Assembly (NCBI RefSeq): GCF_000014265.1
Contig: NC_008312.1
Span: 210,001 to 242,000 of the forward strand
Direction of reading: 5' to 3'
DNA: 32,000 nt
DNA from: Trichodesmium erythraeum IMS101
Lineage (GTDB): Bacteria > Cyanobacteriota > Cyanobacteriia > Cyanobacteriales > Microcoleaceae
Positions 22 through 19,777 of the stretch are shown here, piece after piece (within the stretch, counting starts at the first letter, position 1; each line of letters begins with the position of its first letter). The notes below the pieces were generated by a model, which saw only the letters and a program-made list of their open reading frames with translations, searched no databases and was not told where the DNA came from. The position numbers and the translations under genes were made by a program.

Positions 22-882
22 ATGAAAGTAATCGCTGTTTATCATAATAAAGGTGGAGTTGGAAAAACGACAACAGTAGTTAATTTAGCTGCTGCATTGA
101 GTAAAAAAGGTTATCGAGTTTTGGTTATAGACTTAGATAGTCAGGCGAATACAACTTTTGCAACCGGTCTAATTAAATTTAGTGATGAGCAATTTGATGA
201 TATAAAAGACTCCTATATTTATCATGTTTTGAGGTATGATGAATATTCTAGTATTTCGGAAGTATCTAGAGTTTCTAGGTTTAATGATCCAGAAATTGAT
301 GTAGTTCCTTCTCATATAAATTTAATGGATGTTGAAGGTGAGTTGAACGGTCTAAGAAGTACTCAAACTGCACTAATAAAAAAATTAAAACTCGTAGAAG
401 AAAAATATGATGTTGTTCTAATAGATACCCCACCTTCTTTGAATTTATATGCCTTTGTTCCTTTAGTCAGTGCTAACTATTTAATTATTCCTTCAGACTT
501 AAAACCATTTGCTAATCAAGGTTTATTTAATGTTAAAAATTATCTTCAGCGGGATGTTAACCCCTTTCGGCAAATGATGAATAAACCAGATATAGAAATA
601 TTAGGTGTACTGCCTTGTAAAATTAACCCTAATCATAGATTTGTACAACATACATTACCAAAACAGATTCAAGCAGTTTCTAAGCGTTACGATCTTAATA
701 TTATGGAAACGGTTATATTTCAAAGAGAAGAACTTGCTAGGTGTGTTGATAAAACTCGTGAAGTTGGAAATTTGTTGATACCTGAACCTAGCTCTATATT
801 TGACTATGCACTAGATTCTTCTTCTTCCCAAGAGTTTGAGTCATTAGCAAAAGAAGTATTAAACAAAATTGGACTACAATAA
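22..882 (+). CDS. parA: ParA/Soj-family partition ATPase
   Basis: 286-aa ORF. It has an N-terminal deviant Walker A with signature lysine (NKGGVGKTT), LVIDLDSQAN and VLIDTPPS motifs. Its stop shares one nucleotide with the next start (TAATG at 880-884), suggesting translational coupling. Confidence 0.9.
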   Translation: MKVIAVYHNKGGVGKTTTVVNLAAALSKKGYRVLVIDLDSQANTTFATGLIKFSDEQFDDIKDSYIYHVLRYDEYSSISEVSRVSRFNDPEIDVVPSHINLMDVEGELNGLRSTQTALIKKLKLVEEKYDVVLIDTPPSLNLYAFVPLVSANYLIIPSDLKPFANQGLFNVKNYLQRDVNPFRQMMNKPDIEILGVLPCKINPNHRFVQHTLPKQIQAVSKRYDLNIMETVIFQREELARCVDKTREVGNLLIPEPSSIFDYALDSSSSQEFESLAKEVLNKIGLQ

Positions 883-1856
883 TGTTATTATCTCCAGAAT
901 TTTTACTTGTAAAAGAAATTACTTCTAATGTATCTCGTTCCGAGTTTTCAGAGTCAGATTTAGAACAAGTTGCTCGGTTAATTTTAAAAGCTGAAGGTAC
1001 AATTAAACCTCTAGTTGTACGTACTATTGGTTGGGAATCTTACGAAGTAGTTAACGGACATTTTGAGTATTATGCTGCACTTAGAGCAAAAGAAATAAAT
1101 CCTCGTGATGGGGAAAGAATAGGAGCATTTATTATTGAAGGTCATAAAGCAGATGTGTTAGAAGAACAGGTGAAAATGCTCAGGAATATTTATCCTATAT
1201 CTGAGGACTTTATGAAAATTCCTAGAAATATTTCTCCTGTATCTGAAGCTCCTACAATTCAAGAAGAAGGTAGAATCAATTTAAGTAATTTAGATAAGCT
1301 GCTAGATCAAAAATTGCAATTAATAACAACAAAGTTAGATCGATTAAATGCATCATCTCCTATTGATTATCAATCTCAAGAAAATAAGATCATAGAGCAA
1401 AAACTGGAGAATATTGAAAGTAAAGTTAACCAGTTATTACCAAAAACAAATATCACAGAAATTGAGGAAATTCTGAATAATAAACTAGAAATTATACGTC
1501 AAAAAATTAGTAATCTATCTAAGCAGGAAGCTTTAGATATATTAGCAAAAAATAAAACAGCTTTAAATCGATATTTAGAAGCTATTGATCGTGAATCTAA
1601 TCAACTACAAAGAGTTAATTTGTTAACAGTAGAAACAGAAGAGGAAATCCAACAAGCTTTCCAGCGTAACAATATAAGAGGAGGAAATGAGGCATGGAAA
1701 GCAATTGAATATTGGCGAAAACCAGGTAAAAAGCTGACATGGGAAAATTTAGAAAAATCAGCAAAGACAGCAAGAAAAGGTCATCAAGATAAAATACAAG
1801 GATTTGCAAAAGGTACTTACAACAATTTAAAAAAGATTGGCTATATACCTGATTAA
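882..1856 (+). CDS. Atypical ParB/Srx-like partner protein: ParB N-terminal fold, coiled coil, ComEA-like helix-hairpin-helix C-terminus
   Basis: 324-aa ORF coupled to parA. The N-terminus resembles the ParB/Srx domain (IKPLVVRTIGWESYEVVNGHFEYYAALRA), but the GERRxRA arginine box is replaced by GHFEYYA. The middle is heptad-rich. The C-terminus (VNLLTVETEEEI...IRGGNEAWKAIEYWRKPGKKLTWENL...IQGFAKGTYNNLKK) resembles the ComEA HhH pattern. Confidence 0.65.
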   Translation: MLLSPEFLLVKEITSNVSRSEFSESDLEQVARLILKAEGTIKPLVVRTIGWESYEVVNGHFEYYAALRAKEINPRDGERIGAFIIEGHKADVLEEQVKMLRNIYPISEDFMKIPRNISPVSEAPTIQEEGRINLSNLDKLLDQKLQLITTKLDRLNASSPIDYQSQENKIIEQKLENIESKVNQLLPKTNITEIEEILNNKLEIIRQKISNLSKQEALDILAKNKTALNRYLEAIDRESNQLQRVNLLTVETEEEIQQAFQRNNIRGGNEAWKAIEYWRKPGKKLTWENLEKSAKTARKGHQDKIQGFAKGTYNNLKKIGYIPD

Positions 1857-5744: not shown

Positions 5745-5799
5745 AAGGATTCAAAATTGTTTAACTCACATATAATGAGGACGATCAAAAGCTTGTATT

Positions 5800-6867
5800 A
5801 TGAACATTATGTTAATTGGGTATTATGGCTATCATAACATTGGAGATGATTTGTTCGTTAAGCAACTTACTAATTACTTAGCTAGCAAACAAAAAGTTAA
5901 AAATATTTTTATTTTAGGTGCAGAAAACTATTATAAATTTGAGAGTACAAAGGTTTTTTATTTTGCTAATAATCAATTATCAAAAATTAAGAGGGCTTTA
6001 ATACTATTGAAAAGTGATTATATTGCTTGGGGTGGAGGAAGTTTAGACTTAGAAAGTAAACCAGGTAACTTATTGAAGTTGCAAACATTATCAAAATTAA
6101 TGGGTAAGCGTTTTGGCTTTCTTGGAGTTGGATTGGAGTCTGTACTTAAGGAAAATAATAGCAAAAGCAAGATCGTCAATATTTTTGAAAAATCAGACTA
6201 TCTATATCTTAGAGATGACTATTCCTATGAAATGGTATTAAAGCAGCTTAAATTTAAGCAATTACCAAGTCTAGGAGGTGATTTAGCTTTCTTAGATTTG
6301 ACTATTTATGAAAAATTTTTAAAGCCATTAAACCAAGAAATTAATATTGCTAATATATCATTTTCTGGCAAAAACTGGTGGGGTGAGAGCAGAGCTAAAT
6401 TTTATTCAAAACAGTTAATGCCTCTAATTAAAAATTATAATTGTGTTATTCATTTGCTGCCTGGACATGTAGGAGAATATAGGGAAAGAAATGATAATCG
6501 TTTCCATGAATTGCTGAAAAAATATCTCCCTTCTACTAATTATAAAATTCATTCCTGGAAAGAACCAGAAGATTTTCTAGAAATTCTGAGCTTGATGAAT
6601 TTCCATATAGGAAATCGTCTCCACTCAATTATACTTGCTGATATACTAGGCATTCCAAATATTGGGATTGGTAGTTATAGATCAAAAATTTTCAATTACA
6701 TTCATAAGACAGATACTCTAGTTAAAGAAAGATTAGTAGATTTTATGAAACCAATATCTATGGAAAGGATAATGACAATTTTTCGTCAATACAAAAAACC
6801 AGAAAAGTTTATATTAAAAGAATTTTCTACCGCCAGGTATTGCCTGGAAAAAATTTTCTTTTCTTAA
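5800..6867 (+). CDS. Polysaccharide pyruvyl transferase family protein (CsaB/WcaK-like)
   Basis: 355-aa ORF. The N-terminal IGYYGYHNIGDDLF motif is characteristic of the PS_pyruv_trans family, and there is a C-terminal NRLHSIILA segment. It is divergent from the GT4 gene across only 55 bp. Confidence 0.75.
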   Translation: MNIMLIGYYGYHNIGDDLFVKQLTNYLASKQKVKNIFILGAENYYKFESTKVFYFANNQLSKIKRALILLKSDYIAWGGGSLDLESKPGNLLKLQTLSKLMGKRFGFLGVGLESVLKENNSKSKIVNIFEKSDYLYLRDDYSYEMVLKQLKFKQLPSLGGDLAFLDLTIYEKFLKPLNQEINIANISFSGKNWWGESRAKFYSKQLMPLIKNYNCVIHLLPGHVGEYRERNDNRFHELLKKYLPSTNYKIHSWKEPEDFLEILSLMNFHIGNRLHSIILADILGIPNIGIGSYRSKIFNYIHKTDTLVKERLVDFMKPISMERIMTIFRQYKKPEKFILKEFSTARYCLEKIFFS

Positions 6868-6958
6868 TTATTTCTTTATCATTTAAGGATGATTTTAGAG
6901 CTAATTTCTCAGTTCAAGCAAAGTCCTTATTTACAAAAGTTTTACCAATAAAACCTAC

Positions 6959-7086
6959 CTATAGCAATCCTAAATAATATTAGAGAAAGTCTCTATAAAA
7001 AAATTTAGTTAAAATTTGTAAAATTAACAATTGAGCTTTTCCATGATACCTGATTTATATTCAAAATCATTTAGGATTAGTATATA
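6959..7086. repeat. MITE family A, copy 2
   Basis: It has ctatagcaatcctaaat at the left end and atttaggattagtata at the right end (inverted), and shares its internal block with 1992-2114. Confidence 0.6.
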
Positions 7087-7587
7087 CTTGATCAGCATCT
7101 ATAAAGTTTGACAAAAAGATTAAAACGTGGGTTGTTGAAAAATATAGTCCGTGGGATGTGCTCGTGAAAAAGGATTGCAGATTCTCAAAAAGGATAGACC
7201 CAACATGAAATAATGCCCTATAATTATAAAAATCAAGATTACCCTTCTACGAGTTATAGAATCTGGCTTAATTGTGTTCAATAAATTGATAGATAAGCCA
7301 ATTTTAGAAAATATTTTCAATCGCCTCAGTAAAAGCTAGAGAGCTTTAACATCTATTTCACCATCACTAAAAATCTTCCCTTATCGGCAATAAATGCGCG
7401 CTATTTGAGCAAGGGTTATTGGTAGTATTGATTCAGTATAAATCTGCTTGTGTATTTTAGTTACAGTACTTTCCATTGCCGGTGAGGTCAAGTTTTGCCA
7501 AGCATATGCCTGCACTACAAAACTTTTGTTACTCAGATTTGTACCTCATTTGTCCGAAACCTGCTGTATCATTCAAAATTAGGTTAA

Positions 7588-7738
7588 TAATAGAGTTGTT
7601 GTGAATTAAGGGAAAAAAATGGCTAAAACCCAAAACAAGTCCAGGTTGAAGTGTGCTTTTGAGTCCTACAATTTTGAAAATTTTTCAGAGTAAGCTTTTG
7701 AGTATTTTCAATTTTCCCACACCAAATAACTCTAATAA
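7588..7738. repeat. MITE family B, copy 1 (~150 bp)
   Basis: It is colinear with 10113-10258 (tagagttgttg.gaattaagg.aaaaatg.ctaaaaccc ... gtaagcttttgag.atttt.aattttcccacacc.aaat..ctcta.taa). The ends are imperfect inverted repeats. A third degenerate inverted copy lies at about 10705-10830. Confidence 0.6.
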
Positions 7739-7881
7739 GTACTTTCCGCTGTTATTAAGTATACATAGCAAGTAAGATGCAAGGGCTACAAGAGTTTTAC
7801 TATTTAAGCCTTGTACCTCATGTGTCCGGAATCTGCTGTATATTAAAGTTCCCTCATAAATTCTGTAATTTTTTATGGCAA

Positions 7882-8829
7882 ATGATAAAAGTTAGTGTTT
7901 GCATCCCCACCTATAACCGAGCAAATTTGCTCCCCTATGCAGTAAATAGTGTTTTGAATCAAACTTACAATGATTTTGAATTAATTATAACTGATGATGG
8001 TTCAACAGATAATACTGCTGAAGTAGTTAGTCAGTGGAATGATTCTAGAATTCGTTATATTAGGCATCCACAAAATATTGGTAAAAGCAATAATATGCGC
8101 TCTGGTTTTAATGCTGCCACAGGTGAATACTTTATCAAATTTGATGATGATGATGGTCTGACCCCAGATTTTTTGGAAAAAACAATTTTCATTCTAGATC
8201 GAAATCCAAGTATTGATTTTGTAGGAACTGACCATTGGGTTATTGATATTAACAATCAACGAGATCAAAAAGTAACCGATAAAAATTCTCAAAAATGGGG
8301 TAGAACTCAACTTTTAGAAGGAAGAGTAAACAATTTACTAGAAATAGTATTTATTAATCAAAGTTTTCAAATTGGTGCAACATTATTCCGTAATAGAACC
8401 CTACAAGAAGTAGGATTTATGCGTCCTAATATACAAAATTGTGAAGATAACGATCTATTTGTCCGTCTAGCTCTAGCAGGAAAAACAGGTTATTATTTGC
8501 CAGAAAAATTAATGGAATATCGTTTTCATCTAGAACAGCATGGAATTAACCGGGCAATTCCTTATCTAACTGATAAGCTAAATTATTTACAACAATTTAA
8601 TTTTAAGTTGAGTAAATTAGAGTCACTTAGAAAGTCAAGACTAGCAGAAACTCAGCTAATGTTGGGACTACTACTAATTGAAACAGGTAAAACTCAAAAA
8701 GGAAGGCATATGGTTTGGGAGCAAAAATCTTTTTCTCCACTAAGAGCGTGGACTGGGCTAGCATTATCTATATTACCTATAGAAACTCGTGAGCTTGCTT
8801 TCAAATTTATACGTAGGCTACGCAGTTAA
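7882..8829 (+). CDS. Family 2 glycosyltransferase (GT-A fold)
   Basis: VSVCIPTYNRANLLPYAVNSVLNQTYNDFELIITDDGSTDNT plus a DDDD (DxD) block. I place the start at the internal ATG 7882 (MIKVSV...), because the 35-codon extension from 7777 runs through a duplicated non-coding repeat. Confidence 0.85.
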   Translation: MIKVSVCIPTYNRANLLPYAVNSVLNQTYNDFELIITDDGSTDNTAEVVSQWNDSRIRYIRHPQNIGKSNNMRSGFNAATGEYFIKFDDDDGLTPDFLEKTIFILDRNPSIDFVGTDHWVIDINNQRDQKVTDKNSQKWGRTQLLEGRVNNLLEIVFINQSFQIGATLFRNRTLQEVGFMRPNIQNCEDNDLFVRLALAGKTGYYLPEKLMEYRFHLEQHGINRAIPYLTDKLNYLQQFNFKLSKLESLRKSRLAETQLMLGLLLIETGKTQKGRHMVWEQKSFSPLRAWTGLALSILPIETRELAFKFIRRLRS

Positions 8830-8885
8830 CAGTCGACTACTGATTAGACTGATTAGGCAGGCTAAGTTGCCTGCACTATAATAAA

Positions 8886-8957
8886 TAGACTTTTCCTCCA
8901 AAAAGTTTTTCAACCCTCATTCTCCCGTTCCTAAATCAGTATTTTTGGAGAGGTCTA
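8886..8957. repeat. 72-bp inverted-repeat element / long hairpin between convergent genes
   Basis: tagacttttcctccaaaaa ... tttttggagaggtcta form arms of about 16 bp around a loop of about 38 nt. It sits between the 3' ends of the GT2 gene and the Rho_N gene. Confidence 0.4.
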
Positions 8958-9181
8958 ATACTTGGGGTTGCATACTTACGGGATGATAATTAGACATCTC
9001 TAAAAACTAAGTTTTAGCCTAGTAATTACAAAAGTTTGAGATTAATTTTCAGAAAGGTCTATTAAATTTATATAAGCTGAAACTATTGATTTTGGGACAG
9101 ACTTTTGGCATATATCAAAGTCATCCCATGATCGTACAACCCCTAATTACTTAACTTTTGATATTCAGGATTAAGCTGATC

Positions 9182-9649
9182 TTAACTAGCAGCAGCATCA
9201 GCTTCCCGAAGAGCCTTGAGAATTTCCGGGCGTTTCATTCGCGCATAACCACGTAATTTCCGCTCTTGGGCAATTTTCTTAAGTTGTCTGAGTGATTTGG
9301 TATCGTAGTCATCAACAGGAACTTCTGGTTCTACCTGAGATGCTGAGTTAGCTTTAGTCTTTCTAGTACTTGTTTTGGTGGTAGTCGCCTTAGACCTAGA
9401 GGTTGTCGAGGTTGGCTTGCTCTTGGTCGTTGTCTTAGGTGCTGTCTCAGTTTTAGCTTCTACTTCTACGGTAGAATCTAGTTCTGGTATTGCCTGCAAT
9501 TGACGTCGAACTGCTGAGACTTGAGTTTTTAAGTCATCTTCAAGATCTTTAATAGACTGGGAAAACTGATTAACTGTTTTTACCATCCCTTCAAGTTTTT
9601 TTTCTATTTGTTTGTCAAGATCATCAAGCTGTTTTGATAATAATTCCAT
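9182..9649 (-). CDS. Coiled-coil protein with C-terminal Rho_N/SAP-like domain
   Basis: The C-terminus (SLRQLKKIAQERKLRGYARMKRPEILKALREA) matches the Rho termination factor N-terminal (SAP-like) motif. There is a T/S/K-rich linker and an N-terminal coiled coil. I chose the start at the internal ATG 9649, which has GGAG 6 nt upstream; the track ORF extends to 9712. Confidence 0.7.
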   Translation of the reverse strand: MELLSKQLDDLDKQIEKKLEGMVKTVNQFSQSIKDLEDDLKTQVSAVRRQLQAIPELDSTVEVEAKTETAPKTTTKSKPTSTTSRSKATTTKTSTRKTKANSASQVEPEVPVDDYDTKSLRQLKKIAQERKLRGYARMKRPEILKALREADAAAS

Positions 9650-9741
9650 TTTCACTCCTGTAGAGCTAGATATTGTCTTTTTAGTTGTTGAATTTGTGGT
9701 TTTTCTTACCAATGTTTCTACCTTATTATAAACTTAATTTT

Positions 9742-10516
9742 CTAGGACATGTAATCATTTTTAAAATGCTCAATTTGAGCAATATCAATGCTTTGCTCCA
9801 GCAAAGATGTTAATTGATTTCTAATAACCTCCTCATTTTTATTAATTGATTGATCGATTTTTTTCTGGTGAGACAATCTACCTTTTGATCAAATGATACC
9901 TCAAGTTGTTGTAATAGATGATCAAAGTTGAGTGTTTCTACTAGCTTTTTTGCTTGAGTTAATTTCTCCATCTGTAGTCTAGCTATCTCCACTTGTTCAT
10001 CTTTCCTCTTATCAATTCAGGCCCATATTTTATTGGTTTCAACTTCTTTTACAACTTAACAGATATCAGCACCACGAATGATTTCGTATTGCTGTTCATA
10101 GTCGTAGTTATCTATTAGAGTTGTTGGGAATTAAGGATAAAAATGCCTAAAACCCTTATCAGTTGATCCTTAAGCCTGGATTCGACCTAAAATAATGAAA
10201 GTCTTATATAGTAAGCTTTTGAGCATTTTAAATTTTCCCACACCCAAATCTCTATTAATCTGACAAGTAGTGGTATCAAGCTACTATCTTGATCTATAAG
10301 ACTATTAAATAGAGCTTCATCTCTTTCTGGAGGAAGATATTTCTCCTGAGACTCTGGTAAAGTAATTTGGGATATAGAAATCAATTCCAATTCCAAATTT
10401 AATGGTTGTACCGATAACTCTTCTTGTCGATTTTTGCGCTCTCCTGAAACCATTCCCTTATAACTTTCCTTAATTCCTAAAATCAAATCAAATATAAGGT
10501 ATGATGCTGGTAACAT
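9742..10516 (-). pseudogene. ParB/Srx-like pseudogene (paralogue of 882-1856) interrupted by a MITE and carrying stops and a frameshift
   Basis: The upstream piece reads ISISQITLPESQEKYLPPERDEALFNSLIDQDSSLIPLLVR. MITE B then intervenes. The sequence resumes as DNYDYEQQYEIIRGADI, then an in-frame TAA and TGA, then a coiled-coil segment, then a frameshift before ...NEEVIRNQLTSLLEQSIDIAQIEHFKNDYMS-stop. Confidence 0.55.
10113..10258. mobile_element. MITE family B, copy 2, inserted in the ParB-like gene
   Basis: It matches 7588-7738 end to end. Deleting it (143 or 146 nt, depending on whether a TA duplication is counted) rejoins the two ParB-like reading frames in phase. Confidence 0.6.
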
Positions 10517-11199
10517 CTAGATAGAAGGAGATAAATTACATTAACCTTGTTAGTCCTTTTTGTAACTTTTGATAAATTTAGGATTTTTTACTTTTCCAGC
10601 TATTAGAAATATCCTAATTCAATCCCAGGTAAGACAAAAATAGGATTAGGTGGTCAGAGGGAGTGAACTGTCTAGTGCTGCCTAAGCGATCCTAACAGGT
10701 TTATGGTCAAATGTGTGGGAATTTTAATTCTCAGGCTAAAAGCTCATATATCACCAAGCCCAACAGTGTTTTTAGTTATTGATTTTTGCCATGTCTTTTG
10801 TGATTTTTTCTCTTACCCAGATTTAACTTTTATCAGGCTACTTTAGCATACTCTTTTTAACTACAGTTGACAAATAAATTATGATCTTAGTAGCAGTTGA
10901 CTGTATGCTATGAATTCAGTAAACACTTGTCAACATGTGTTAAGTTATTGCTCTAGTCCTAAAACTTGATTAGGTATAGCTAGGGAACAAGCCAAGAGAG
11001 GTCGCAATCATAAATTACTCTGAAAAAGATGGAGCTTACGGCATAAATTTTATGGCCATATTAGGTCGCGATCGCATAATTCTATTAAAGTGGCTGAAGT
11101 TATTTTGTAACTTTTTTGCACAAAATAGTCAAGGTTTACCTATTTGATTAATAATAGTATTAATTGGCTAATTTTTGCAAGTGGGGAGAAGATGATCGC

Positions 11200-12018
11200 A
11201 TGGATCTTAAACATCTAAAATTTATTTTAAAATTACTAGGCTACAAAAACTATCGAGTATCTATTAATAAAATTCAGCCAGAGCATGGAATGAAGGTTTC
11301 TGAGAGGGATGAAATCTGTTACCGCCTTTGCGATCAAGGTTTAGTAGAGTTTACAAGGGAGGTTACAAAAATTAATATATCAGCCCAGGGAAAATCATTT
11401 CTAGATAGTAAAAAAGATAGCAATTCACTAACCTCAGAAGAGTTAAAAGTACTCAAAGCAACTGCTCGGGGTGCTATTTCTCCGGGAGCAACTGGTATCA
11501 TGCCTAGCTATAGAGAAGCTGTCATTACAGATTTACTAGACCAGGATTTAATCAAAGTTGTTGCTCAAAAAATCAAAGAAGTTTGGCTAACAGAAAAAGG
11601 AAAGCAATTTTTGTGCCAAGAATATTCATCTCACAGTACGGCAAAAGAAATCTCATTGAAAATGTTAAGTGATTATCTCCAGTTAATGCGTACAAACTAC
11701 AATCAGGAAAAAAAACCGTTGTTTTCTGGAGATTCAAAAAAAAAACAAAAACCCAATGACGATCAAATTTTAGCAGAGATTTGGTCTTTAGACAATCGTC
11801 ATGGTACAGATAAGTACTTACCGATTTTTCATCTACGAGAAAAGCTACAACCCCGTTTATCCCGAGAAGAACTAGATCAGGCACTCTACCGTTTAGAAAG
11901 AAATCATCAAATAGAATTAAGTTCCCTACAGGAGGTAAGATCCTATACACCAGAGCAAATTGAAGCAGGTATCCCTCAAAACATTGGCGGATGTTTATTT
12001 TTTATCATTCTCGACTAA
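11200..12018 (+). CDS. Multi-winged-helix DNA-binding-like protein (hypothetical)
   Basis: 272 aa from ATG 11200; the track ORF starts at a TTG at 11164. There is an internal duplication of a recognition-helix plus wing motif (CDQGLVEFTREVTKINISAQGKSFL and LDQDLIKVVAQKIKEVWLTEKGKQFL), and a third winged-helix-like C-terminal segment (LDQALYRLERNHQIELSSLQE). Confidence 0.6.
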   Translation: MDLKHLKFILKLLGYKNYRVSINKIQPEHGMKVSERDEICYRLCDQGLVEFTREVTKINISAQGKSFLDSKKDSNSLTSEELKVLKATARGAISPGATGIMPSYREAVITDLLDQDLIKVVAQKIKEVWLTEKGKQFLCQEYSSHSTAKEISLKMLSDYLQLMRTNYNQEKKPLFSGDSKKKQKPNDDQILAEIWSLDNRHGTDKYLPIFHLREKLQPRLSREELDQALYRLERNHQIELSSLQEVRSYTPEQIEAGIPQNIGGCLFFIILD

Positions 12019-12065
12019 TACAAAATTACCAAAAAATCTTTACAGTTAAAAAAAAGAGCAGATAA

Positions 12066-12098
12066 GGACGTTCCATCGAACGTCCCTAAGTCTTAGGG
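12066..12098. repeat. Hairpin/palindrome repeat (ggacgttc-catc-gaacgtcc, then ccctaag-t-cttaggg)
   Basis: A perfect 8-bp stem with a 4-nt loop is followed by a 7-bp palindrome. It is related to the gtaggtagggacNttg hairpins at 14368-14400 and 17985-18018. Confidence 0.5.
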
Positions 12099-12269
12099 AA
12101 TAGGGAAAATCCTTGCTATCTATTTAATTTTTCTGTATGGCAAAATCCAGGTCTTCCCTAGAAATAAAAAAAAGTTAATCTAGCAGTATTTTTAGAAACT
12201 GGTATAAATCTTCTTATATCTGCTATCGTAATTCTCTAAGCATCCTTAAAAATACTAACAATTTATATT

Positions 12270-14264
12270 ATGGCATCTATAGATCAAATTATTCAAAGAG
12301 AACTTAATCCTTTCGATCCTGTAACTCTTTATACTATTAATTTTTGGCAAGAGCAACAAAATTCTAACCTGAATGTTGATTCTATCCATCAAAATATTAT
12401 CACTGATATAGAAACTGTACTAGAGCAAGTGGCTCAGGAACATCACCCCCGTACTTTGATACTTACAGGTGACTCTGGTTCTGGCAAAAGTTACCTTTTG
12501 GGGAGAATTAAAAAATTATTCAATACTAAAGCTTTTTTTGTCTATGTCGATCCTTGGCCTCATAGTGATTATATTTGGAGACATATTTTACGTCAAACTG
12601 TTGACTGCCTGATGAAAACTCCAGATGGTAAAACAGATTCTCAGCTATTACTATGCCTCAAAAGTCTATTAGCTTTCCCAAATAGTAATTTGGTCCAAAA
12701 AATTCTTGGTGAAAGAAGAGTATTCATTAGAAACCTTAAAGCAATTTACCCTTCTGGGATTTACAATCCTAATGATTTTTTCAGTGTCCTCTATCATCTA
12801 CTAGATCCCCAGTATAACGCTGTTGCCTGTGAATGGTTACGAGGGGATGATTTGGATGAAGACGATTTAAAATCTTTGGGCATTAAAAATAGTATAGATT
12901 CTGAATATTCTGCGCAAAAAATTATTACTAACTTGGGAATTATTTCCGCTGCATCTCAACCTATTGTTTTATGTTTTGATAATCTTGATAATATTCCTCG
13001 CTTGTTAAATGGAACCTTAGATTTACAAGCATTATTTAATGTTAATTCTAGTATTCATACTCACTATCCACAAAATTTTCTGATAATTATTAGTATTATT
13101 ACGAGTACCTGGAAACAAAATTCTAAATTCATTCAACCAGCAGATAAAGCCAGAGTTAATGCAGGATATTTCCATTTAAAACCAATTACTTTAGAACAGG
13201 GTGAAGCTATATTAGCAACTCGTTTAAATACTTTACATTCCCAGGCAACAACTAGGCCTAAATCAGCTACATTTCCTCTGTCAAAAGAAATATTAGAACA
13301 GCAGTTTCCCAGAGGAATAACTCTACCTCGGAATATACTAGAATTGGGACGTAAAGAATATGAGCAGTACAAATTAAAATTATTGAATCAGACACAGAAT
13401 AGTCAAGATTTAACACCAGAAACACAATTGGCGACTTTTAAGTTGATTTGGCAAGACCACTACAATAAGACTCAGAAAAAAATTAGCAAAATTACTGATT
13501 TAGCAGCACCTGAATTGATTCGGATGCTACAAGAAGTATTAAATTCTTTACAATGTCAGAAGGTAAAAACTAAATTATTAAGTGGGAAATATGCCAGCCA
13601 TTCTTTGAGTTATCAAAAACAAAACCAAGAGCAAATTATCGGTATAGTTTGGACAGAAGATCCAAATATGAATAGTTTTTACAATACAATGAAGGCTTGT
13701 CAGAAAGTAGTGAATAAAAAATTGTGTCAAACTTTATATTTACTGAGAACTTCTGAGGTAGGAAATTCTAAAAATCTTAGCAATAAAATATATAGAAAAA
13801 TTTTCCAAGGTAAGTCAAAAAATATTCATATTAAACCTAATTTAGAATCGGTGCATTTTTTAGCTACACATCATAGTTTGGTGAATGCTGTCCTCGCTAA
13901 TGAATTAGTTATTGAAGGTAAGATTATTAATTTGAAAAAGTTTGAAGAAATAATTGGTGAATCACAAATTTTCAATAACTGTAGCTTATTAAAATATTTT
14001 TCTGTAGTTGTTTCTGTAGGTACTCAAGAACAGGAAAATGATCTAGATTTAGATGAGGTCAAGGATTTTGTATTAAATTTAATTAGAAAACAAAGTTTGA
14101 TGGAACGCAACAGCATAATCGAAAATACACTAAATCAATTTGTCAAAATAGAAGGTTCAAAAATTGATATAATAATAACAGAGCTTGAGGGAGAAAATAA
14201 AATAAAAATTATTACTCCTACATTAGGATTAGATGAACAATTAGTTTGTTTTGTTCCTGGTTAA
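12270..14264 (+). CDS. P-loop AAA+ ATPase, ORC/Cdc6 / AAA_16 / STAND-like, with long C-terminal extension
   Basis: 664-aa ORF. It has Walker A GDSGSGKS (aa 67-74), a Walker B-like IVLCFDNLDN, a sensor/lid-like segment LKPITLEQGEAILATRL, about 330 further residues without a motif I recognise, and a terminal winged-helix-like segment (VKDFVLNLIRKQSLMERNSIIENTLNQFVKIEG). Confidence 0.8.
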   Translation: MASIDQIIQRELNPFDPVTLYTINFWQEQQNSNLNVDSIHQNIITDIETVLEQVAQEHHPRTLILTGDSGSGKSYLLGRIKKLFNTKAFFVYVDPWPHSDYIWRHILRQTVDCLMKTPDGKTDSQLLLCLKSLLAFPNSNLVQKILGERRVFIRNLKAIYPSGIYNPNDFFSVLYHLLDPQYNAVACEWLRGDDLDEDDLKSLGIKNSIDSEYSAQKIITNLGIISAASQPIVLCFDNLDNIPRLLNGTLDLQALFNVNSSIHTHYPQNFLIIISIITSTWKQNSKFIQPADKARVNAGYFHLKPITLEQGEAILATRLNTLHSQATTRPKSATFPLSKEILEQQFPRGITLPRNILELGRKEYEQYKLKLLNQTQNSQDLTPETQLATFKLIWQDHYNKTQKKISKITDLAAPELIRMLQEVLNSLQCQKVKTKLLSGKYASHSLSYQKQNQEQIIGIVWTEDPNMNSFYNTMKACQKVVNKKLCQTLYLLRTSEVGNSKNLSNKIYRKIFQGKSKNIHIKPNLESVHFLATHHSLVNAVLANELVIEGKIINLKKFEEIIGESQIFNNCSLLKYFSVVVSVGTQEQENDLDLDEVKDFVLNLIRKQSLMERNSIIENTLNQFVKIEGSKIDIIITELEGENKIKIITPTLGLDEQLVCFVPG

Positions 14265-14314
14265 TAAGGAATTTATAACTGATTATTAGAATGATTAACT
14301 ATTTTTAATATAAA

Positions 14315-14473
14315 CTATAGTAATTCTCATCTCTGAGTGAAGTGCAAAATTCTTTCGTTACGCGCAAGTAGGTAGGGACGTTGCATGCAATGTCTGTAGG
14401 TCATAGCAATTAGTGAAACAGGGAATAAAAAAGAAAAAACAACTGTACCTCAGTAGATTGAGAAATGTTATAG
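14315..14473. repeat. MITE family C (159 bp) with internal hairpin
   Basis: The TIRs are ctatagtaattctcatctctgag and ctcagtagattgagaaatgttatag. The core carries gtaggtagggacgttgcatgcaatgtctgtagg. Confidence 0.55.
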
Positions 14474-14550
14474 ATAAAACTGATAATTATTAAAAATTGT
14501 TAGTTACGTTAATTGCTTGAAAAAAACAGGAAAATTAAAATAGTCCGTCA

Positions 14551-15456
14551 ATGCCAATAAGTAATAAACCGCAATTACAATCTCCACCATTTAGTATTAA
14601 TAATGTTAAAGTTGCTTTTGATTGCCCGCGTTTGTTTTATTTGAAACATAGTTTTGGAGGTAATCATCCGTTTTTTCCCAAGAATTATATCCAGGAAATT
14701 GATAATGCTTTTCTTGACTTAGCTAATCAGTTAATGAATATGATTTGGCAAGAATCTAGAATTAAAGTTTTGTTTGCAGGACAATTTGAGGGGTTGGTGG
14801 TAGGGGCGATCGCTAATCAAATACAGCAATTATTTTATGGTTTGATTTTCTTTCCTTATTTACAAACAATAATTACAAAAGATGCTACTTTAACAACAGC
14901 ATTGTATCAAATTTGGCGGGTTTTAACTAAAATGATTTTTAATATATCTAAAATCATTGTTAAAAATCGGCGTTACTGTCATGAAAGTGTTGTGCTTCAT
15001 CGCACATTAATTATGGGAGAAACACTAGTAGATTATACTTTTAAAATACCAGATGGTAAGACTCAAAAGTTAACGGGAAAAGTTAATAATTTAATTTTTG
15101 ATTTTGAGTCTCGTCGCTTGTGTGTGGTTCATTTTCAAACTTATGAAACTGTGGAAGTATTGTCTCATTTAATAGGAGTTGCTCTCCATAGTTTTTTGCT
15201 TAAACAAAAGAAAAAAGTGCCTGTTGATGCTCTTGTTTATTGGGTTTTGCCTGAGTTGGGAGAGTATTATTATTCCTGGGAAAAGTTGGAGAACGTAGTG
15301 GAGAGTTTAGTTCCCAATAAGTTGGAAGAGATGCGGGAGTGGTTGAAATGGGAGGAGTTTCAACCTGGCTCACCTCCACCTACGGAGAAAGAGTATTTAT
15401 GTGATATTTGCCCTCAAAAGGAAAGGTGTCAGAGTTTTTTTGATGGGGGTGGGTAA
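14551..15456 (+). CDS. Cas4/AddB-type PD-(D/E)XK superfamily protein with 4-Cys Fe-S cluster signature
   Basis: 301-aa ORF. It has an N-terminal SINNVKVAFDCPRLFYL (Cys25 in the CPR motif) and a C-terminal CDICPQKERC (C284-x2-C287-x5-C293). This is the Cas4/DUF83 cysteine arrangement. Confidence 0.7.
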   Translation: MPISNKPQLQSPPFSINNVKVAFDCPRLFYLKHSFGGNHPFFPKNYIQEIDNAFLDLANQLMNMIWQESRIKVLFAGQFEGLVVGAIANQIQQLFYGLIFFPYLQTIITKDATLTTALYQIWRVLTKMIFNISKIIVKNRRYCHESVVLHRTLIMGETLVDYTFKIPDGKTQKLTGKVNNLIFDFESRRLCVVHFQTYETVEVLSHLIGVALHSFLLKQKKKVPVDALVYWVLPELGEYYYSWEKLENVVESLVPNKLEEMREWLKWEEFQPGSPPPTEKEYLCDICPQKERCQSFFDGGG

Positions 15457-18330: not shown

Positions 18331-19777
18331 TATAGCACTACGCATTCAAGTTAGGAAATATAACAAGTTAGGACATATAATTAAAATGGCGATCGCTAAA
18401 TGGGAAGGGGGATAATTATTAAAATAGTCCAAATCCTTCAATGCTCCAACTATCTACTATACCTGAACTTCCCCCTAAGAAAAATAACACAATGCCCAAG
18501 CCAAAGTAGTTGAGCGCGATTTTTTCAACTACCAGTTACTGGGTAGAATAAATGGGCTTTTAAGGCCGATATAGTACATTTGTATGGAAGGAAGTTCAGC
18601 TATGGAAAAACGTTAGGACAATTCTTAAATGCTCCATCAACGCAATCTCTAATATTTTCAAATTCGTTTTTTCTTTGTTTGATCCATGTCTTCAATACTG
18701 CCCACCAATTTTCTATGTTGTTTAAATCGGATGAATAGGTTGGCAAGTACCATATTTCACATCCGTCACTTTCCACTATCTGTCTAATATTTTCACCTTT
18801 ATGAAAACTAGCATTATCTATTATTATTACATCTCCTTTTTCTAACTGTGGTATTAAGCATTATTATAATTATTTTTCAAATAAGTATCGATTATATCCA
18901 CCTTCAAAAGTTAATGGAGACAAGATTTTTTTCTCTCGTAAAGGGAAGCGTCCAACTGAATCTCTCTGCTCTTTTTCCTGATTTTAATTCATAGCATCTT
19001 TCCCCTTTTGGACTATAACCATAACCATAAACCAGTACAATTATCAAAACCTGCTTCATCTACATAAACCAGTTTTTTTTGATCTACTGTTAATAGTTTT
19101 TCCATAAATTTTTGTCTTTCCACTTCATTTCTTTCTTCATAACCGTAAGTTTTTTTTCTAGTTATACCCAATTAATTTTTGACAAGCTTTTGATACATTT
19201 TGTTGTGTCAAATTATCTCCCCATAACTCTGCTATTTGAATTTGAGTTTTGTGATTATGCCTCAAAACAAATTGTTCAAATTTATCCTAATCCTTAATTT
19301 TTAGTTGTTTGCCCTCTGATTCATTATTAATAGCCTCCAAATCTCCAGTTTCCTTTTTCCTTTTTAACCATAAATAAAGGGTATTTCTGCTAATGTGAAA
19401 AAGCCGACAAATAATACTTTTTTTTCTCTCTTCTTTCTACAGAAGCGATTGCCTTCTGTCGTAATTCATAACTATATGGTGCAGGCATGAAACAATCTTA
19501 AAATAAATTAGCTAATACCATTTTAACTTGTCCTAACCCGAATGCGTAGTGCTATATCGGCCTTAAAAGCCCATCTATTCTACCCAGTAACCGGTAGTTG
19601 AAAAATCGCGCTCAACTACTTTGGCTTGGGCATTGTGTTATTTTTATTAGGGGGAAATTCAGGCATAGTAGATAGTTGGAGCATTGAAGGATTTGGGCTA
19701 TTTTAATAATTATCCCCCTTCCCATTTAGCGATCGCCATTCTAATTATATGTCCTAACTTGAATGCGTAATGCTATA
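18331..19777. mobile_element. IS630-family element flanked by ~230-bp near-identical inverted arms (nested or fold-back structure)
   Basis: Arm 18331-18573 is the reverse complement of 19553-19777, at about 95 percent identity with one 17-bp duplication. The outer tips (tatagcactacgcattcaagttaggac) recur at the inner right end (19530-19556). The arms meet the inner element at TA dinucleotides. Confidence 0.75.
18600..19488 (-). pseudogene. IS630/Tc1-mariner family transposase, frameshifted
   Basis: The minus-strand reading gives MPAPYSYELRQKAIASVE, VYVDEAGFDN, IIDNASFHKGENI and YLPTYSSDLNNIENWWAVLK (DDE motif blocks). It is interrupted by several stops and frameshifts. Confidence 0.75.

Follow-up and report, generated by a model that had tools for sequence, protein, structure and literature searches.

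A reduced rcaD–rcaG operon in Trichodesmium erythraeum IMS101: most likely an effector-less DNA-binding complex, not a new mobile anti-phage system

The window analyzed here is a 32,000-nt stretch of T. erythraeum IMS101 DNA (contig NC_008312.1, positions 210,001 to 242,000). The three same-strand open reading frames (ORFs) listed by an earlier sequence-only reading are present at exactly the sizes given and correspond to Tery_0151, Tery_0152, and Tery_0153. Coordinates of the three genes and the surrounding features are provided in Table 1. The product of the first ORF is 100% identical to Tery_0151; translation from the ATG yields the 272-aa protein and from an upstream TTG a 284-aa protein. 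The three ORFs are considered real genes because their dN/dS against relatives is 0.16-0.41, and at least 10 genomes of the Trichodesmium/Okeania/Dapis clade carry all three without disruption. The trio is the Trichodesmium version of the conserved cyanobacterial rcaD–rcaG operon plus a reduced third gene. It had been labelled unclassified; that label does not hold, as genes 1 and 2 are the published rcaD–rcaG pair (PMC2799420), known as an operon from Calothrix since 2002, and a computational study of 2024 had already presented the full three-gene architecture.

Table 1. Features of the window (positions are counted from its first nucleotide)
Feature	Position	Strand	Remarks
ParA-type ATPase	22..882	+	Pfam AAA_31 2e-53, CbiA, ParA
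ParB_N-domain partner of ParA	882..1856	+	Pfam ParB_N 27.9 bits (cutoff 26.3)
Decayed ParB_N + Rho_N gene, immediately upstream of rcaD	9182..10447	-	tblastn pieces
rcaD orthologue (Tery_0151)	11200..12018	+	272 aa; three winged-helix-like units
Short palindromic hairpin, rcaD-rcaG spacer	12064..12087	.	lineage-specific
rcaG orthologue (Tery_0152)	12270..14264	+	664 aa; Orc/Cdc6-like AAA+ ATPase, extended C-terminal half
RcaG Walker A, GDSGSGKS, residues 67-74 (K73)	12468..12491	+	GxxGxGK[ST] in 105/105 family ORFs
RcaG Walker B region, IVLCFDNLDN, residues 232-241	12963..12992	+	without Glu after Asp
RcaG middle alpha/beta domain, residues ~430-545	13557..13904	+	AF2 secondary structure
RcaG C-terminal winged helix, residues 589-661	14034..14252	+	AF2 DSSP, H-E-H-H-E-E
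Hairpin related to the one at 12064..12087, rcaG-gene 3 spacer	14374..14397	.	
Tery_0153	14551..15456	+	301 aa; stand-alone, catalytically dead (as judged from its residues) Cas4-like Fe-S PD-(D/E)XK protein
Cys25 (CPR), first putative Fe-S ligand	14623..14625	+	invariant in alignment A1
Degenerate nuclease motifs of Tery_0153	15076..15189	+	N179 (D), H194 (E), Q196 (K), G209 (Q), H213 (Y); ancestral residue in brackets
C284-x2-C287-x5-C293 cluster	15400..15429	+	invariant in alignment A1
IS630-type DDE_3 carcass	18331-19777		~250-nt inverted repeats

The decayed ParB-like gene that had been reported beside the trio is real. Its fragments (9185-10447) were recovered by tblastn as out-of-frame pieces at 9185-9745, 9837-10118, and 10250-10447; the Rho_N part survives as an ORF at 9182-9712, and the intact 374-aa Okeania protein that the three pieces match carries ParB_N and Rho_N. 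The IS630 carcass was likewise found, as a DDE_3 remnant. As in the earlier reading, no CRISPR-like repeat family was found in the window, and its annotated ORFs include neither a cas nor a helicase gene.

Tery_0151 is 42-44% identical over its full length to gene 1 of Lyngbya, Scytonema, and Microcoleus, and the Scytonema PCC 7110 orthologue carries the NCBI name "transcription factor RcaD". A 272-aa T. erythraeum protein stands beside RcaD in Table 2 of the published work, where RcaG is the ATPase encoded downstream (PMC2799420). Between Lyngbya and Nostocales, RcaD is 58-66% identical, higher than RcaG. The AF2 model (pLDDT 90.4) contains winged-helix-like units at residues ~3-60, ~73-130, and ~187-271, and the duplication of units 1 and 2 is visible in the family alignment, in line with the duplicated helix-plus-wing motif and third winged helix first read from the translation. 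Comparison with DndG/SspB detected no sequence-profile link and no significant fold match.

RcaG has more than 1200 homologues, with ~50% full-length identity across cyanobacterial genera, and relatives occur in 405 GTDB species genomes. The AAA_16 profile scores 28 bits on Tery_0152 and 39.5 bits, above the cutoff, on the Lyngbya orthologue; the UniRef name is "Orc1-like AAA ATPase domain-containing protein". The Walker motifs noticed earlier are both kept family-wide, and among the 105 RcaG-family ORFs the Walker B Asp is followed by N in 63, Q in 41, and S in one, never by E. The proposed ORC/Cdc6-like AAA+ layout with a terminal winged helix agrees with the AF2 model of Tery_0152 (pLDDT 87.9, pTM 0.89), for which the top Foldseek matches in the PDB are Orc4, Orc1, and Cdc6. 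The C-terminus reads H589-608, E610-612, H613-623, H629-641, E645-648, and E658-661 by DSSP; Orc/Cdc6 proteins have a winged-helix domain at this C-terminal position. In the middle of the protein, the modelled order is a(413-426)-b(430-434)-b(445-449)-b(456-461)-a(467-482)-b(488-492), which may represent an inactive restriction-endonuclease (REase)-like domain; an inactive REase has been placed at the corresponding position (PMC10853773). Sequence support for that identity was not found using Pfam, PDB, and hhalign.

In most cyanobacteria, gene 3 encodes an ~870-aa fusion of a 3'-5' exonuclease, a Cas4-like Fe-S PD-(D/E)XK nuclease, FtsKα, and an FtsK motor (Pfam DNA_pol_A_exo1 1e-26, PDDEXK_1 7e-14, FtsK_alpha 5e-11, and FtsK_SpoIIIE 2e-42). 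Tery_0153 aligns only to residues ~182-480 of the 861-876-aa proteins of Lyngbya and Scytonema. The stand-alone ~300-aa form is common to Trichodesmium, Okeania, Dapis, and related Microcoleaceae, and in the three named genera the exonuclease and the motor have been lost. In a neighbor-joining tree (drawn without support values), an Exo-PDDEXK-FtsK locus (L026) is followed by two PDDEXK-FtsK loci (L024 and L025) and then by the Trichodesmium/Okeania/Dapis clade. The derivation of the fragment-size Tery_0153 from an Exo-REase-FtsK gene is invisible from the window alone.

The Cas4-type cysteine signature (CPR and C-x2-C-x5-C) is present and invariant as described earlier, and the assignment to a Cas4-type Fe-S PD-(D/E)XK fold holds. 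Cys25 occurs in 65 of 66 aligned sequences (L048 has a gap there), and all four cysteines are kept in 18/18 stand-alone members of the clade. Gene 3 has a dN/dS of 0.28-0.35, similar to rcaD and rcaG, and lacks in-frame stops in 10 genomes; its four cysteines and reading frame are kept under purifying selection. Each of the 47 loci whose gene 3 includes an FtsK motor keeps the catalytic D-(E/D)-K-Q-Y residues. Among the stand-alone proteins of the clade, K and Q are lost in 18/18, and D and E in most. Tery_0153 had been proposed as a nuclease-fold effector or sensor; it is a derivative of the larger Exo-REase-FtsK gene, and it is predicted to be unable to act as a nuclease effector in the window because all PD-(D/E)XK catalytic residues are substituted.

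Gene order was surveyed in the 80 best loci from the 405 species genomes with a relative plus seven fetched separately (87 loci). The co-occurrence check proposed earlier found rcaD directly upstream of RcaG in 82/84 RcaG-containing loci, window included, a near-universal adjacency, and gene 3 linked to the pair in 66/87, in most as the Exo-PDDEXK-FtsK fusion. The flanks contain the glycosyltransferases GT4 in 44 loci and GT2 in 33, and a 540-aa protein in 28; IleRS and HHL1 are also among the conserved neighbours. A ParA-like gene is found in the flanks of 52/87 loci and a ParB_N-like gene in 36/87, either as convergent pairs or with ParA following gene 3 directly in the same direction. The window ParA is 55-90% identical to ParA of Dapis, Okeania, Lyngbya, Microcoleus, and Laspinema, where the gene is convergent and just downstream of gene 3, and its partner in the window is homologous to the ParB-like gene adjoining ParA in relatives. 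The pair lies ~9 kb from rcaD in Trichodesmium, moved by an inversion, and present-day operonic coupling is therefore weakened. Okeania-type loci have a second ParB_N/Rho_N gene upstream of the operon.

The position of the operon in the chromosome is fixed in Trichodesmium, Okeania, and Dapis, and the shared neighbours (GT4, GT2, the 540-aa protein, and ParA/ParB-like genes) span several cyanobacterial orders. One RcaG match lies on a plasmid (a conjugative Pseudanabaena plasmid), and the RcaG search returned no phage match. For these reasons, the module is not regarded as borne on an island or mobile element. The supposed island has a GC content like its surroundings and ordinary chromosomal flanking genes in conserved positions; the findings agree with two of the outcomes that the sequence-only reading had itself named as refuting its proposal. 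The distribution is patchy and paralogues are frequent within genomes, which also fits a conflict system; going by the match list in PMC2799420, Anabaena PCC 7120 and N. punctiforme seem to lack the RcaD-type pair.

The full operon, with the long gene 3, matches the architecture of the Orc/CDC6–HerA/FtsK capture systems, for which a counter-invader function was predicted in 2024 (PMC10853773). Within this architecture, the complete operon forms a clade that is cyanobacterial and fixed in the chromosome, and the earlier logic of a DNA-binding adaptor, an NTPase switch, and a nuclease-fold protein is the same as that of the capture systems. The Trichodesmium trio differs from them in having no motor, exonuclease, or catalytic residues.

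The trio is best explained as a reduced rcaD–rcaG operon and not as a new mobile anti-phage system; its products most likely form an ATP-switched complex that binds DNA and lacks an effector (probability about 0.72). In its ancestral form, gene 3 would have encoded a DNA-processing motor in which FtsK-alpha and an FtsK translocase were joined to a Cas4-like Fe-S PD-(D/E)XK nuclease and a 3'-5' exonuclease. Toward Trichodesmium, Okeania, and Dapis, the exonuclease would have been lost first and the FtsK motor next, with substitution of the nuclease catalytic residues, so that DNA cutting and pumping would have been given up in T. erythraeum. RcaD may provide site recognition, and RcaG may serve as a loader or clamp that hydrolyses ATP slowly. 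Tery_0153 could be a subunit without catalysis that binds DNA or forms an Fe-S scaffold, much as a dead nuclease domain is retained in RecC. The role would be regulatory or nucleoid-associated, with a historical coupling to the neighbouring ParA/ParB_N pair.

A transcription-factor pair, in which RcaD regulates phycobiliprotein or other operons, RcaG is an ATP-dependent helper, and gene 3 is baggage, is a tentative alternative. According to PMC2799420, the native RcaD of Calothrix binds to the cpc2 promoter and has an effect on red-light operons, RcaG has been suggested to assist this binding, and an EMSA shift of jamaicamide promoter DNA was obtained with Lyngbya protein 7968; the pair also stayed under purifying selection after effector-domain loss. 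However, gene 3 is not baggage, since it is linked in most surveyed loci and conserved even when apparently dead. The operon is also widespread in taxa for which no chromatic adaptation is known, as noted for Lyngbya (PMC2799420), and a translocase-nuclease partner and ParA/ParB linkage are unexpected for an ordinary regulator. Chromosome or nucleoid maintenance with ParA/ParB_N, such as segregation or processing of multiple chromosome copies in filamentous cyanobacteria with the help of an Orc/Cdc6-like loader and, in the ancestral state, of an FtsK pump, is unlikely. The flanking ParA/ParB_N genes, the Okeania-type layout, and the fixed position argue for it, as do the listed FtsK entries of model cyanobacteria, which are YjgR/HerA-clade proteins (table in PMC7766704). 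Against it, the operon is not universal in cyanobacteria and therefore not essential, in Trichodesmium an inversion has split the ParA/ParB pair from the operon and the ParB_N/Rho_N gene upstream is decayed, and two fused nucleases would be odd for a segregation motor.

The effector-less complex is also preferred over active anti-phage or anti-plasmid defence, in which the winged-helix protein and the Orc/Cdc6 ATPase would localise on invading DNA and the nuclease-fold protein would destroy it. Such defence is plausible for the long forms of other cyanobacteria, given the capture-system architecture, the paralogues, and the plasmid copy; a non-cyanobacterial three-gene relative with an intact REase-FtsK (L087) lies ~2 kb from a methyltransferase and HNH pair, and another locus (L088) adjoins VapBC. 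For the window it is improbable, since motor and exonuclease are absent there and all the nuclease catalytic residues substituted, leaving no effector in it. Moreover, the locus is fixed among housekeeping-type genes in several orders, no recognisable defence neighbours occur in the window, PADLOC 2.0 has no model for the trio, and RcaD is not fast-evolving. A decaying, non-functional remnant in a pseudogene-rich genome, suggested by the decayed neighbours, the loss of two domains and the active site from gene 3, and the unusually long spacers (252 nt for rcaD-rcaG and 287 nt for rcaG-gene 3) with inserted hairpins, is very improbable given the intact ORFs under selection, the strictly conserved cysteines, and a 301-aa form stable across three genera. 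The hairpin in the first of these spacers is probably a small repeat element.

The three genes are a reduced variant of a known architecture and not a categorically new system. The same-strand ORFs were found where the sequence-only reading had placed them and at the lengths it gave, together with its motifs, namely GDSGSGKS (K73) and IVLCFDNLDN in ORF2, CPR near the N-terminus of ORF3, and C284-x2-C287-x5-C293 near its C-terminus. Exact look-ups identified the ORFs as Tery_0151, Tery_0152, and Tery_0153 of Trichodesmium erythraeum IMS101. About 1100 homologues of ORF1 were retrieved, several of which bear the UniRef name "Transcription factor RcaD". Tery_0151 was 42-44% identical to its orthologues over the full length, including the one from Scytonema hofmannii PCC 7110 (42%), which is named RcaD at NCBI. 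Among the best matches of Lyngbya 7968, Table 2 of Jones et al. 2009 (PMC2799420) gives RcaD CAC39267 (Tolypothrix/Calothrix PCC 7601) and, alongside it, the T. erythraeum protein of 272 aa. The gene for RcaG lies directly 3' of rcaD on the same strand in the window, and RcaD was encoded upstream of RcaG in 82 of the 84 RcaG-containing loci. Sequence homology identifies the first two genes as rcaD and rcaG. Coordinates are collected in the following table.

Features of the window, in order of position
Feature	Coordinates	Strand	Description
ParA/ParB_N pair	22-1856		about 9 kb upstream of rcaD
Direct repeats, first pair	2029-2113; 7003-7084		short, intergenic
Copy of the ~540-aa protein gene	2926-4536	-	536 aa; adjoins the GT4 glycosyltransferase gene
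Inverted block	2926-15456		536-aa gene to gene 3
Direct repeats, second pair	7665-7726; 10186-10247		short, intergenic
ParB_N + Rho_N gene	9182-10447	-	upstream of rcaD; three out-of-frame pieces
Stretch used for the dS comparison	11200-15456		compared with L029, L017, and L023
rcaD (ORF1, Tery_0151)	11200-12018	+	272 aa from ATG
Spacer hairpins	12064-12087; 14374-14397		one in each spacer of the trio
rcaG (ORF2, Tery_0152)	12270-14264	+	664 aa
Gene 3 (ORF3, Tery_0153)	14551-15456	+	301 aa
IS debris	15.5-20.3 kb		downstream of gene 3
IS630-type (DDE_3) transposase	18331-19777		broken into several frames; inverted repeats 18331-18577 and 19549-19777
ORF-poor trough	24000-26000		22-25% GC

The pair has the same order as RcaD-RcaG of Calothrix/Fremyella (Tolypothrix) PCC 7601, a DNA-binding protein of ~280 aa followed by a putative ATPase. 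As cited in PMC2799420, Noubir et al. 2002 (Mol Microbiol 43:749) reported binding of RcaD to the cpc2 promoter, changes in red-light operons caused by RcaD, and a putative ATPase, RcaG, which is encoded directly downstream and may facilitate this binding. The two pairs differ in that the link to chromatic adaptation was drawn in Calothrix and not in Trichodesmium. Genes 1 and 2 are also direct homologues of the 7968/7969 pair of Lyngbya (Moorea) majuscula, which differs in having been obtained by pull-down on a secondary-metabolite promoter; 7968 (304 aa) has Tery_0151 among its best matches and as recombinant protein shifts promoter DNA in EMSA, and 7969 is 49% identical to RcaG (PMC2799420). 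The published accounts of RcaD-RcaG that were found mention neither a third gene, nor an Orc/Cdc6 fold of RcaG, nor ParA/ParB linkage, and literature searches on Tery_0151-0153 returned nothing relevant. The AlphaFold2 model of RcaD (pLDDT 90.4) has three winged-helix-like units in a chain (residues ~3-60, 73-130, and 187-271); a Foldseek search against the PDB gave no match at E ≤ 1e-3, only generic winged helices of MarR, RPC34, and TFIIIC.

RcaG (ORF2) had more than 1200 homologues at ~50% identity over the full length in many cyanobacterial genera. Its Pfam AAA_16 score was sub-threshold (28 bits), the best NCBIfam models (DnaI and Hda) were matched through the P-loop only and far below cutoff, and no meaningful match to solved structures was obtained by sequence. 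In the AlphaFold2 model, which was confident (pLDDT 87.9, pTM 0.89), strand 2 of the AAA+ core is followed by a very large insertion of helices. Behind the core come a lid with a helical bundle, a domain of alpha/beta type (~430-545), and, at the C-terminus, a winged helix-turn-helix (wHTH; residues 589-661, H-E-H-H-E-E pattern). Foldseek returned 36 PDB matches at E ≤ 1e-3, nearly all of them ORC subunits or Cdc6/Orc1 (5zr1_D, 3e-6; 1fnn_A, 6e-5; 2qby_A, 2e-4), so the earlier "ORC/Cdc6-like" call holds at the fold level; with TM-scores as low as those obtained (~0.19-0.5), no relationship closer than the fold class is supported. The middle alpha/beta domain, with the order a-b-b-b-a-b over residues 413-492, follows the AAA+ core and precedes the C-terminal wHTH. 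It aligned with the PD-(D/E)XK segment of gene 3 in hhalign no better than control domains did, and only noise came from scanning 43 divergent copies against Pfam (E ≤ 10) and from searching the PDB with a profile. Walker A was intact across the 105 RcaG-family ORFs, and the residue after the Walker B Asp was Asn in 63, Gln in 41, Ser in 1, and Glu in none. RcaG departs in this from cellular Orc1/Cdc6 initiators, which have D-E, its Walker B being D-[N/Q] in 104/105 and never D-E. Given established AAA+ enzymology, the missing Walker B Glu suggests that RcaG would bind ATP and hydrolyze it slowly, behaving less like a motor than like a switch or clamp.

Tery_0153 derives by reduction from a gene that was far larger and, as far as its residues predict, it is catalytically dead. 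The Scytonema and Lyngbya versions of the third gene code for proteins of 861-876 aa in which DNA_pol_A_exo1, PDDEXK_1, FtsK_alpha, and FtsK_SpoIIIE domains exceed the Pfam cutoffs, and Tery_0153 aligned to residues ~182-480 only, which are the PD-(D/E)XK segment. The FtsK and exonuclease parts were sought in the 32-kb window using tblastn (E ≤ 50, word size 2), and none was found. Library scores for ORF3 were sub-threshold (PDDEXK_1, E 0.055; Cas4, E ~0.04-0.14). At the catalytic positions, Tery_0153 has N179, H194, Q196, G209, and H213 instead of D, E, K, Q, and Y. The D-(E/D)-K-Q-Y set was intact in 47/47 proteins with an FtsK motor; among the stand-alone proteins of the Trichodesmium clade, Lys and Gln were lost in 18/18, Asp and Glu also in most, and the four cysteines were kept in 18/18. 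The state of the catalytic residues follows the architecture (motor or stand-alone) exactly. Gene 3 had no stops in 10 genomes and a dN/dS of 0.28-0.35 (rcaD, 0.16-0.41; rcaG, 0.17-0.31), and dN/dS and frame conservation rule out a pseudogene. A plain housekeeping FtsK was also rejected for the long gene, because it lacks the membrane and gamma domains, carries two nucleases, and in many cyanobacteria is either missing or present in reduced form; the proteins listed as "FtsK" for model cyanobacteria are moreover of the HerA/YjgR type (PMC7766704). A literature search on FtsK, Cas4, and exonuclease in cyanobacteria found nothing relevant.

An RcaG relative was encoded in 405 GTDB species genomes, and the best 80 loci, six others, and the window were analyzed (87 in all). 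In most taxa, the operon is RcaD-RcaG followed by an exonuclease-PDDEXK-FtsK fusion, often with a co-directional ParA-like gene behind it (form A). The fusion is permuted to PDDEXK-exonuclease-FtsK in Coleofasciculus and Microcoleus metagenome-assembled genomes (MAGs) (L027, L028, L030, and L032), with catalytic residues intact in all four. It has no exonuclease (PDDEXK-FtsK) in L024 and L025 and apparently in L054, where gene 3 is ~6 kb from RcaG, and it is reduced to PDDEXK alone in the Trichodesmium/Okeania/Dapis/Microcoleaceae clade and at one further locus (L036). Overall, an FtsK domain was present in 48 of the 66 loci having gene 3. In a second form (B), found in Microcoleus, Laspinema, Oscillatoria PCC 10802, and Phormidium (L003, L033, L042, L047, L052, L053, L057, L060, L061, and L078), RcaD is followed by tandem RcaG paralogues (GETGSGK[ST] in copy 1 and GDSGSGKS in copy 2) and a convergent ParB-like/ParA pair, often with a stand-alone 3'-5' exonuclease gene ~5 kb off. 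Form B and the FtsK type are adjacent in two Laspinema loci (L052 and L061). In a neighbor-joining RcaG tree built without support values, the Trichodesmium clade is sister to L024/L025 (PDDEXK-FtsK), and these together stand next to L026 (full fusion), a placement that fits a stepwise loss of gene 3 domains. We infer that the Trichodesmium trio would be able neither to pump nor to cut DNA.

The architecture of the long forms has been catalogued by Rakesh, Aravind & Krishnan 2024 (NAR 52:1005; PMC10853773) among "HerA/FtsK capture systems", one class of which couples HerA/FtsK to a specific Orc/CDC6 ATPase. In this class, the ATPase always has an inactive restriction endonuclease (REase) domain inserted after its AAA+ core and ahead of its C-terminal wHTH, the HerA/FtsK domain (with FtsK-alpha in one set) is accompanied by an active REase, and subsets have a separate protein of 2-4 wHTHs related to DndG/SspB and a 3'-5' exonuclease fused to the motor; the predicted role is to counter invaders, and the neighborhoods are called mobile (PMC10853773). 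The long cyanobacterial operon matches domain for domain, with an Orc/CDC6 ATPase whose C-terminal wHTH is preceded by an extra domain, a separate protein of 2-4 wHTHs, an active REase, HerA/FtsK with FtsK-alpha, and a fused 3'-5' exonuclease. It differs in that members of the cyanobacterial clade keep a fixed place on the chromosome, often with ParA/ParB linkage, instead of being mobile, and the version in the window has no FtsK, no exonuclease, and no predicted nuclease activity. The trio's membership of the class is partial: it has the Orc/Cdc6 fold, the terminal wHTH, and a multi-wHTH partner (the three units of RcaD), and it has no active REase (found in 47/47 long-form orthologues), no FtsK motor within 32 kb, and no mobile neighborhood. 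For the inactive REase, the middle domain of RcaG is a possible counterpart by its place and topology, although the sequence searches gave no signal for it. No signal of a relationship between RcaD and DndG/SspB was obtained with PADLOC or Foldseek, and neither cyanobacteria nor RcaD is mentioned in the text and supplement of PMC10853773. Beyond the tight RcaG core family, an exhaustive profile search gave a second tier of 600-800-aa relatives that includes non-cyanobacteria. In a Thermodesulfobacteriota MAG (L087, 6118-10880), genes for a protein of 298 aa, an ATPase resembling RcaG, and a PDDEXK-FtsK fusion whose motifs are intact lie ~2 kb upstream of an N6/N4 methyltransferase gene and an MTaX1/HNH gene. 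A metagenomic locus (L088, 6342-9485) contains a variant of three genes without FtsK, next to VapBC; the similarity of its first gene to RcaD is weak (hhalign E 2e-4).

Other named systems were compared and rejected. The window proteins were run against Pfam, NCBIfam, and PADLOC-DB 2.0, where all matches were sub-threshold, which explains why the sequence-only reading could not place the trio; the decisive annotations came from the long-form orthologues. No PADLOC-DB 2.0 system (Gabija, Septu, Lamassu, Hachiman, Zorya, Avs, PARIS, BREX, or others) was matched significantly, the weak matches being partial or at P-loop level (MkoB, 0.004; SspF, 1e-5; DrmC, 0.003; mad8, 0.005; Cas4, 0.04). DndFGH/SspFGH are built on the same three-part plan, in which a P-loop ATPase is combined with a DNA-binding protein of several wHTHs and with a large protein that has a HerA/FtsK motor at its end, and the FtsK part of the long gene 3 matched the PADLOC SspH model at 2e-65. 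However, RcaG matched SspF (1e-5) and DndF (0.0025) over ~45 P-loop residues only, RcaD had no DndG or SspG match, and there is neither a phosphorothioate modification module nor any DndH-specific domain; an assignment to DndFGH/SspFGH was rejected on the P-loop-only matches. Tery_0153 resembles Cas4/AddB-type nucleases in its four-Cys signature (an N-terminal Cys and CX2CX5C) and PD-(D/E)XK fold, and the long forms retain D, ExK, and QxxxY. It scored, however, 12 bits against a TIGR00372 cutoff of 65 (PADLOC Cas4, E 0.037), and every catalytic residue of that type is gone from it. No CRISPR-like repeats or cas genes were found in the window, and a CRISPR-associated Cas4 was rejected, the four-Cys signature being the only feature shared.

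The locus is chromosomal and vertically inherited and is not an island, the label under which it had been described. GC content is unremarkable, and the neighbors of the operon are conserved in both Oscillatoriales and Nostocales. A search of 72,556 plasmids with RcaG gave a single match, at 41.5% identity on a Pseudanabaena plasmid of 328 kb, and no match was found in 50,697 phage records. Neighbors were counted by an unbiased clustering that took in every ORF of the 87 sources. A GT4 glycosyltransferase was found at 44 loci, of which 33 lie outside the Trichodesmium clade, GT2 at 33, isoleucyl-tRNA synthetase at 12, an HHL1-like protein at 11, a ParA-like protein at 52, and a ParB_N-like protein at 36; a ~540-aa protein without a Pfam domain lies near the operon at 28 loci from several cyanobacterial orders. 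In Dapis and Okeania, the order is glycosyltransferases, ParB_N/Rho_N gene, rcaD, rcaG, gene 3, ParB-like gene, ParA, desaturase, and PALP enzyme, with the ParA/ParB_N pair convergent just downstream of gene 3. The window has the same gene order, except that in T. erythraeum the segment that starts with the 536-aa gene and ends with gene 3 is inverted relative to Dapis (L004/L011) and Okeania (L006/L029), and the inversion accounts for the present position of the ParA/ParB_N pair upstream of rcaD. Trichodesmium MAGs L008, L014, and L022 likewise have no ParA downstream. The right breakpoint coincides with the IS debris, which includes an IS630-type carcass with flanking inverted repeats of ~250 nt (94-97% complementary). 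The ParB_N + Rho_N gene is intact in Okeania (374 aa) and is fragmented also in Dapis, beside an intact rcaD operon. What the sequence-only reading observed stands, and its interpretation does so only in part: a new anti-phage or mobile-element module in an island is mostly explained away, since the family of two of the genes was named in 2002, a 2024 catalogue already covers the full architecture, and the locus is inherited vertically on the chromosome.

The preferred model is that the trio would form an ATP-switched DNA-binding complex, in which RcaD may supply site recognition, RcaG may act as a slow-hydrolyzing loader or clamp of the Orc/Cdc6 type, and Tery_0153 would be a non-catalytic DNA-binding or Fe-S scaffold, by analogy RecC-like, in a regulatory or nucleoid-associated role. 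RecC, in the RecBCD structure, is a precedent for a dead nuclease domain kept in a complex. Our tentative account of its origin has three parts, to which we jointly give about one chance in three: RcaD and RcaG would be the targeting half (multi-wHTH protein and Orc/Cdc6 ATPase) of an FtsK-nuclease capture machine; this machine would have become chromosomally fixed and ParA/ParB-linked in cyanobacteria; and Trichodesmium, Okeania, and Dapis would show its domestication under way, having dropped the pump and both nuclease activities and kept the targeting pair and the dead Fe-S subunit under selection for some task in the host, for instance in gene regulation or nucleoid organization. Among the alternatives, a ParAB-coupled chromosome-maintenance module fits the ParA/ParB linkage, but such a module sits badly with the patchy distribution. 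RcaD and RcaG could also be a plain transcription-factor pair, but this leaves the conserved third gene unexplained. Active defense is plausible for the long forms elsewhere and poorly supported here, and a decaying trio is contradicted by the selection data (dN/dS).

If the capture-machine origin is correct, it joins two separate literatures and provides a natural case in which a conflict-type system has been exapted for the DNA biology of its host. The link of RcaD/RcaG to the Orc/CDC6-FtsK-nuclease architecture is new as far as the literature found shows; it alters the reading of the old chromatic-adaptation data and gives the capture class, otherwise known by prediction, experimentally handled proteins in Calothrix RcaD and Lyngbya 7968. 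The 87-locus comparison is a clean natural series from a full motor-nuclease to a dead stand-alone Fe-S domain under purifying selection, in which the targeting half outlives the effector, and is a ready-made test of which parts of the system serve the host. The recurrent ParA/ParB_N linkage, which is outside the published description, hints at a role in DNA organization in polyploid filamentous cyanobacteria.

Relative to Okeania L029, dS falls along the operon (rcaD, 0.99; rcaG, 0.57; gene 3, 0.32) with similar dN/dS; recombination at the 3' end or nucleotide-level constraint is possible. A promoter and terminator scan gave no signal above the shuffle expectation. Both spacers of the trio contain a hairpin with the core AGGGACGTT...AACGTCCCT, and the exact core occurs at only those two sites in 32 kb. 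The hairpin recurs in the same spacers of the closest Trichodesmium MAGs and also elsewhere in one of them (L014), and is probably a small lineage-specific palindromic element; a conserved operator was ruled out because it is confined to the closest relatives and present elsewhere as well. Other genes of the window are ordinary (pyruvyl transferase, TgpA-like transglutaminase, and polyprenyl synthase). Two pairs of short intergenic direct repeats (with one 32-nt stretch 97% identical) and an ORF-poor, low-GC trough at 24-26 kb were also observed.
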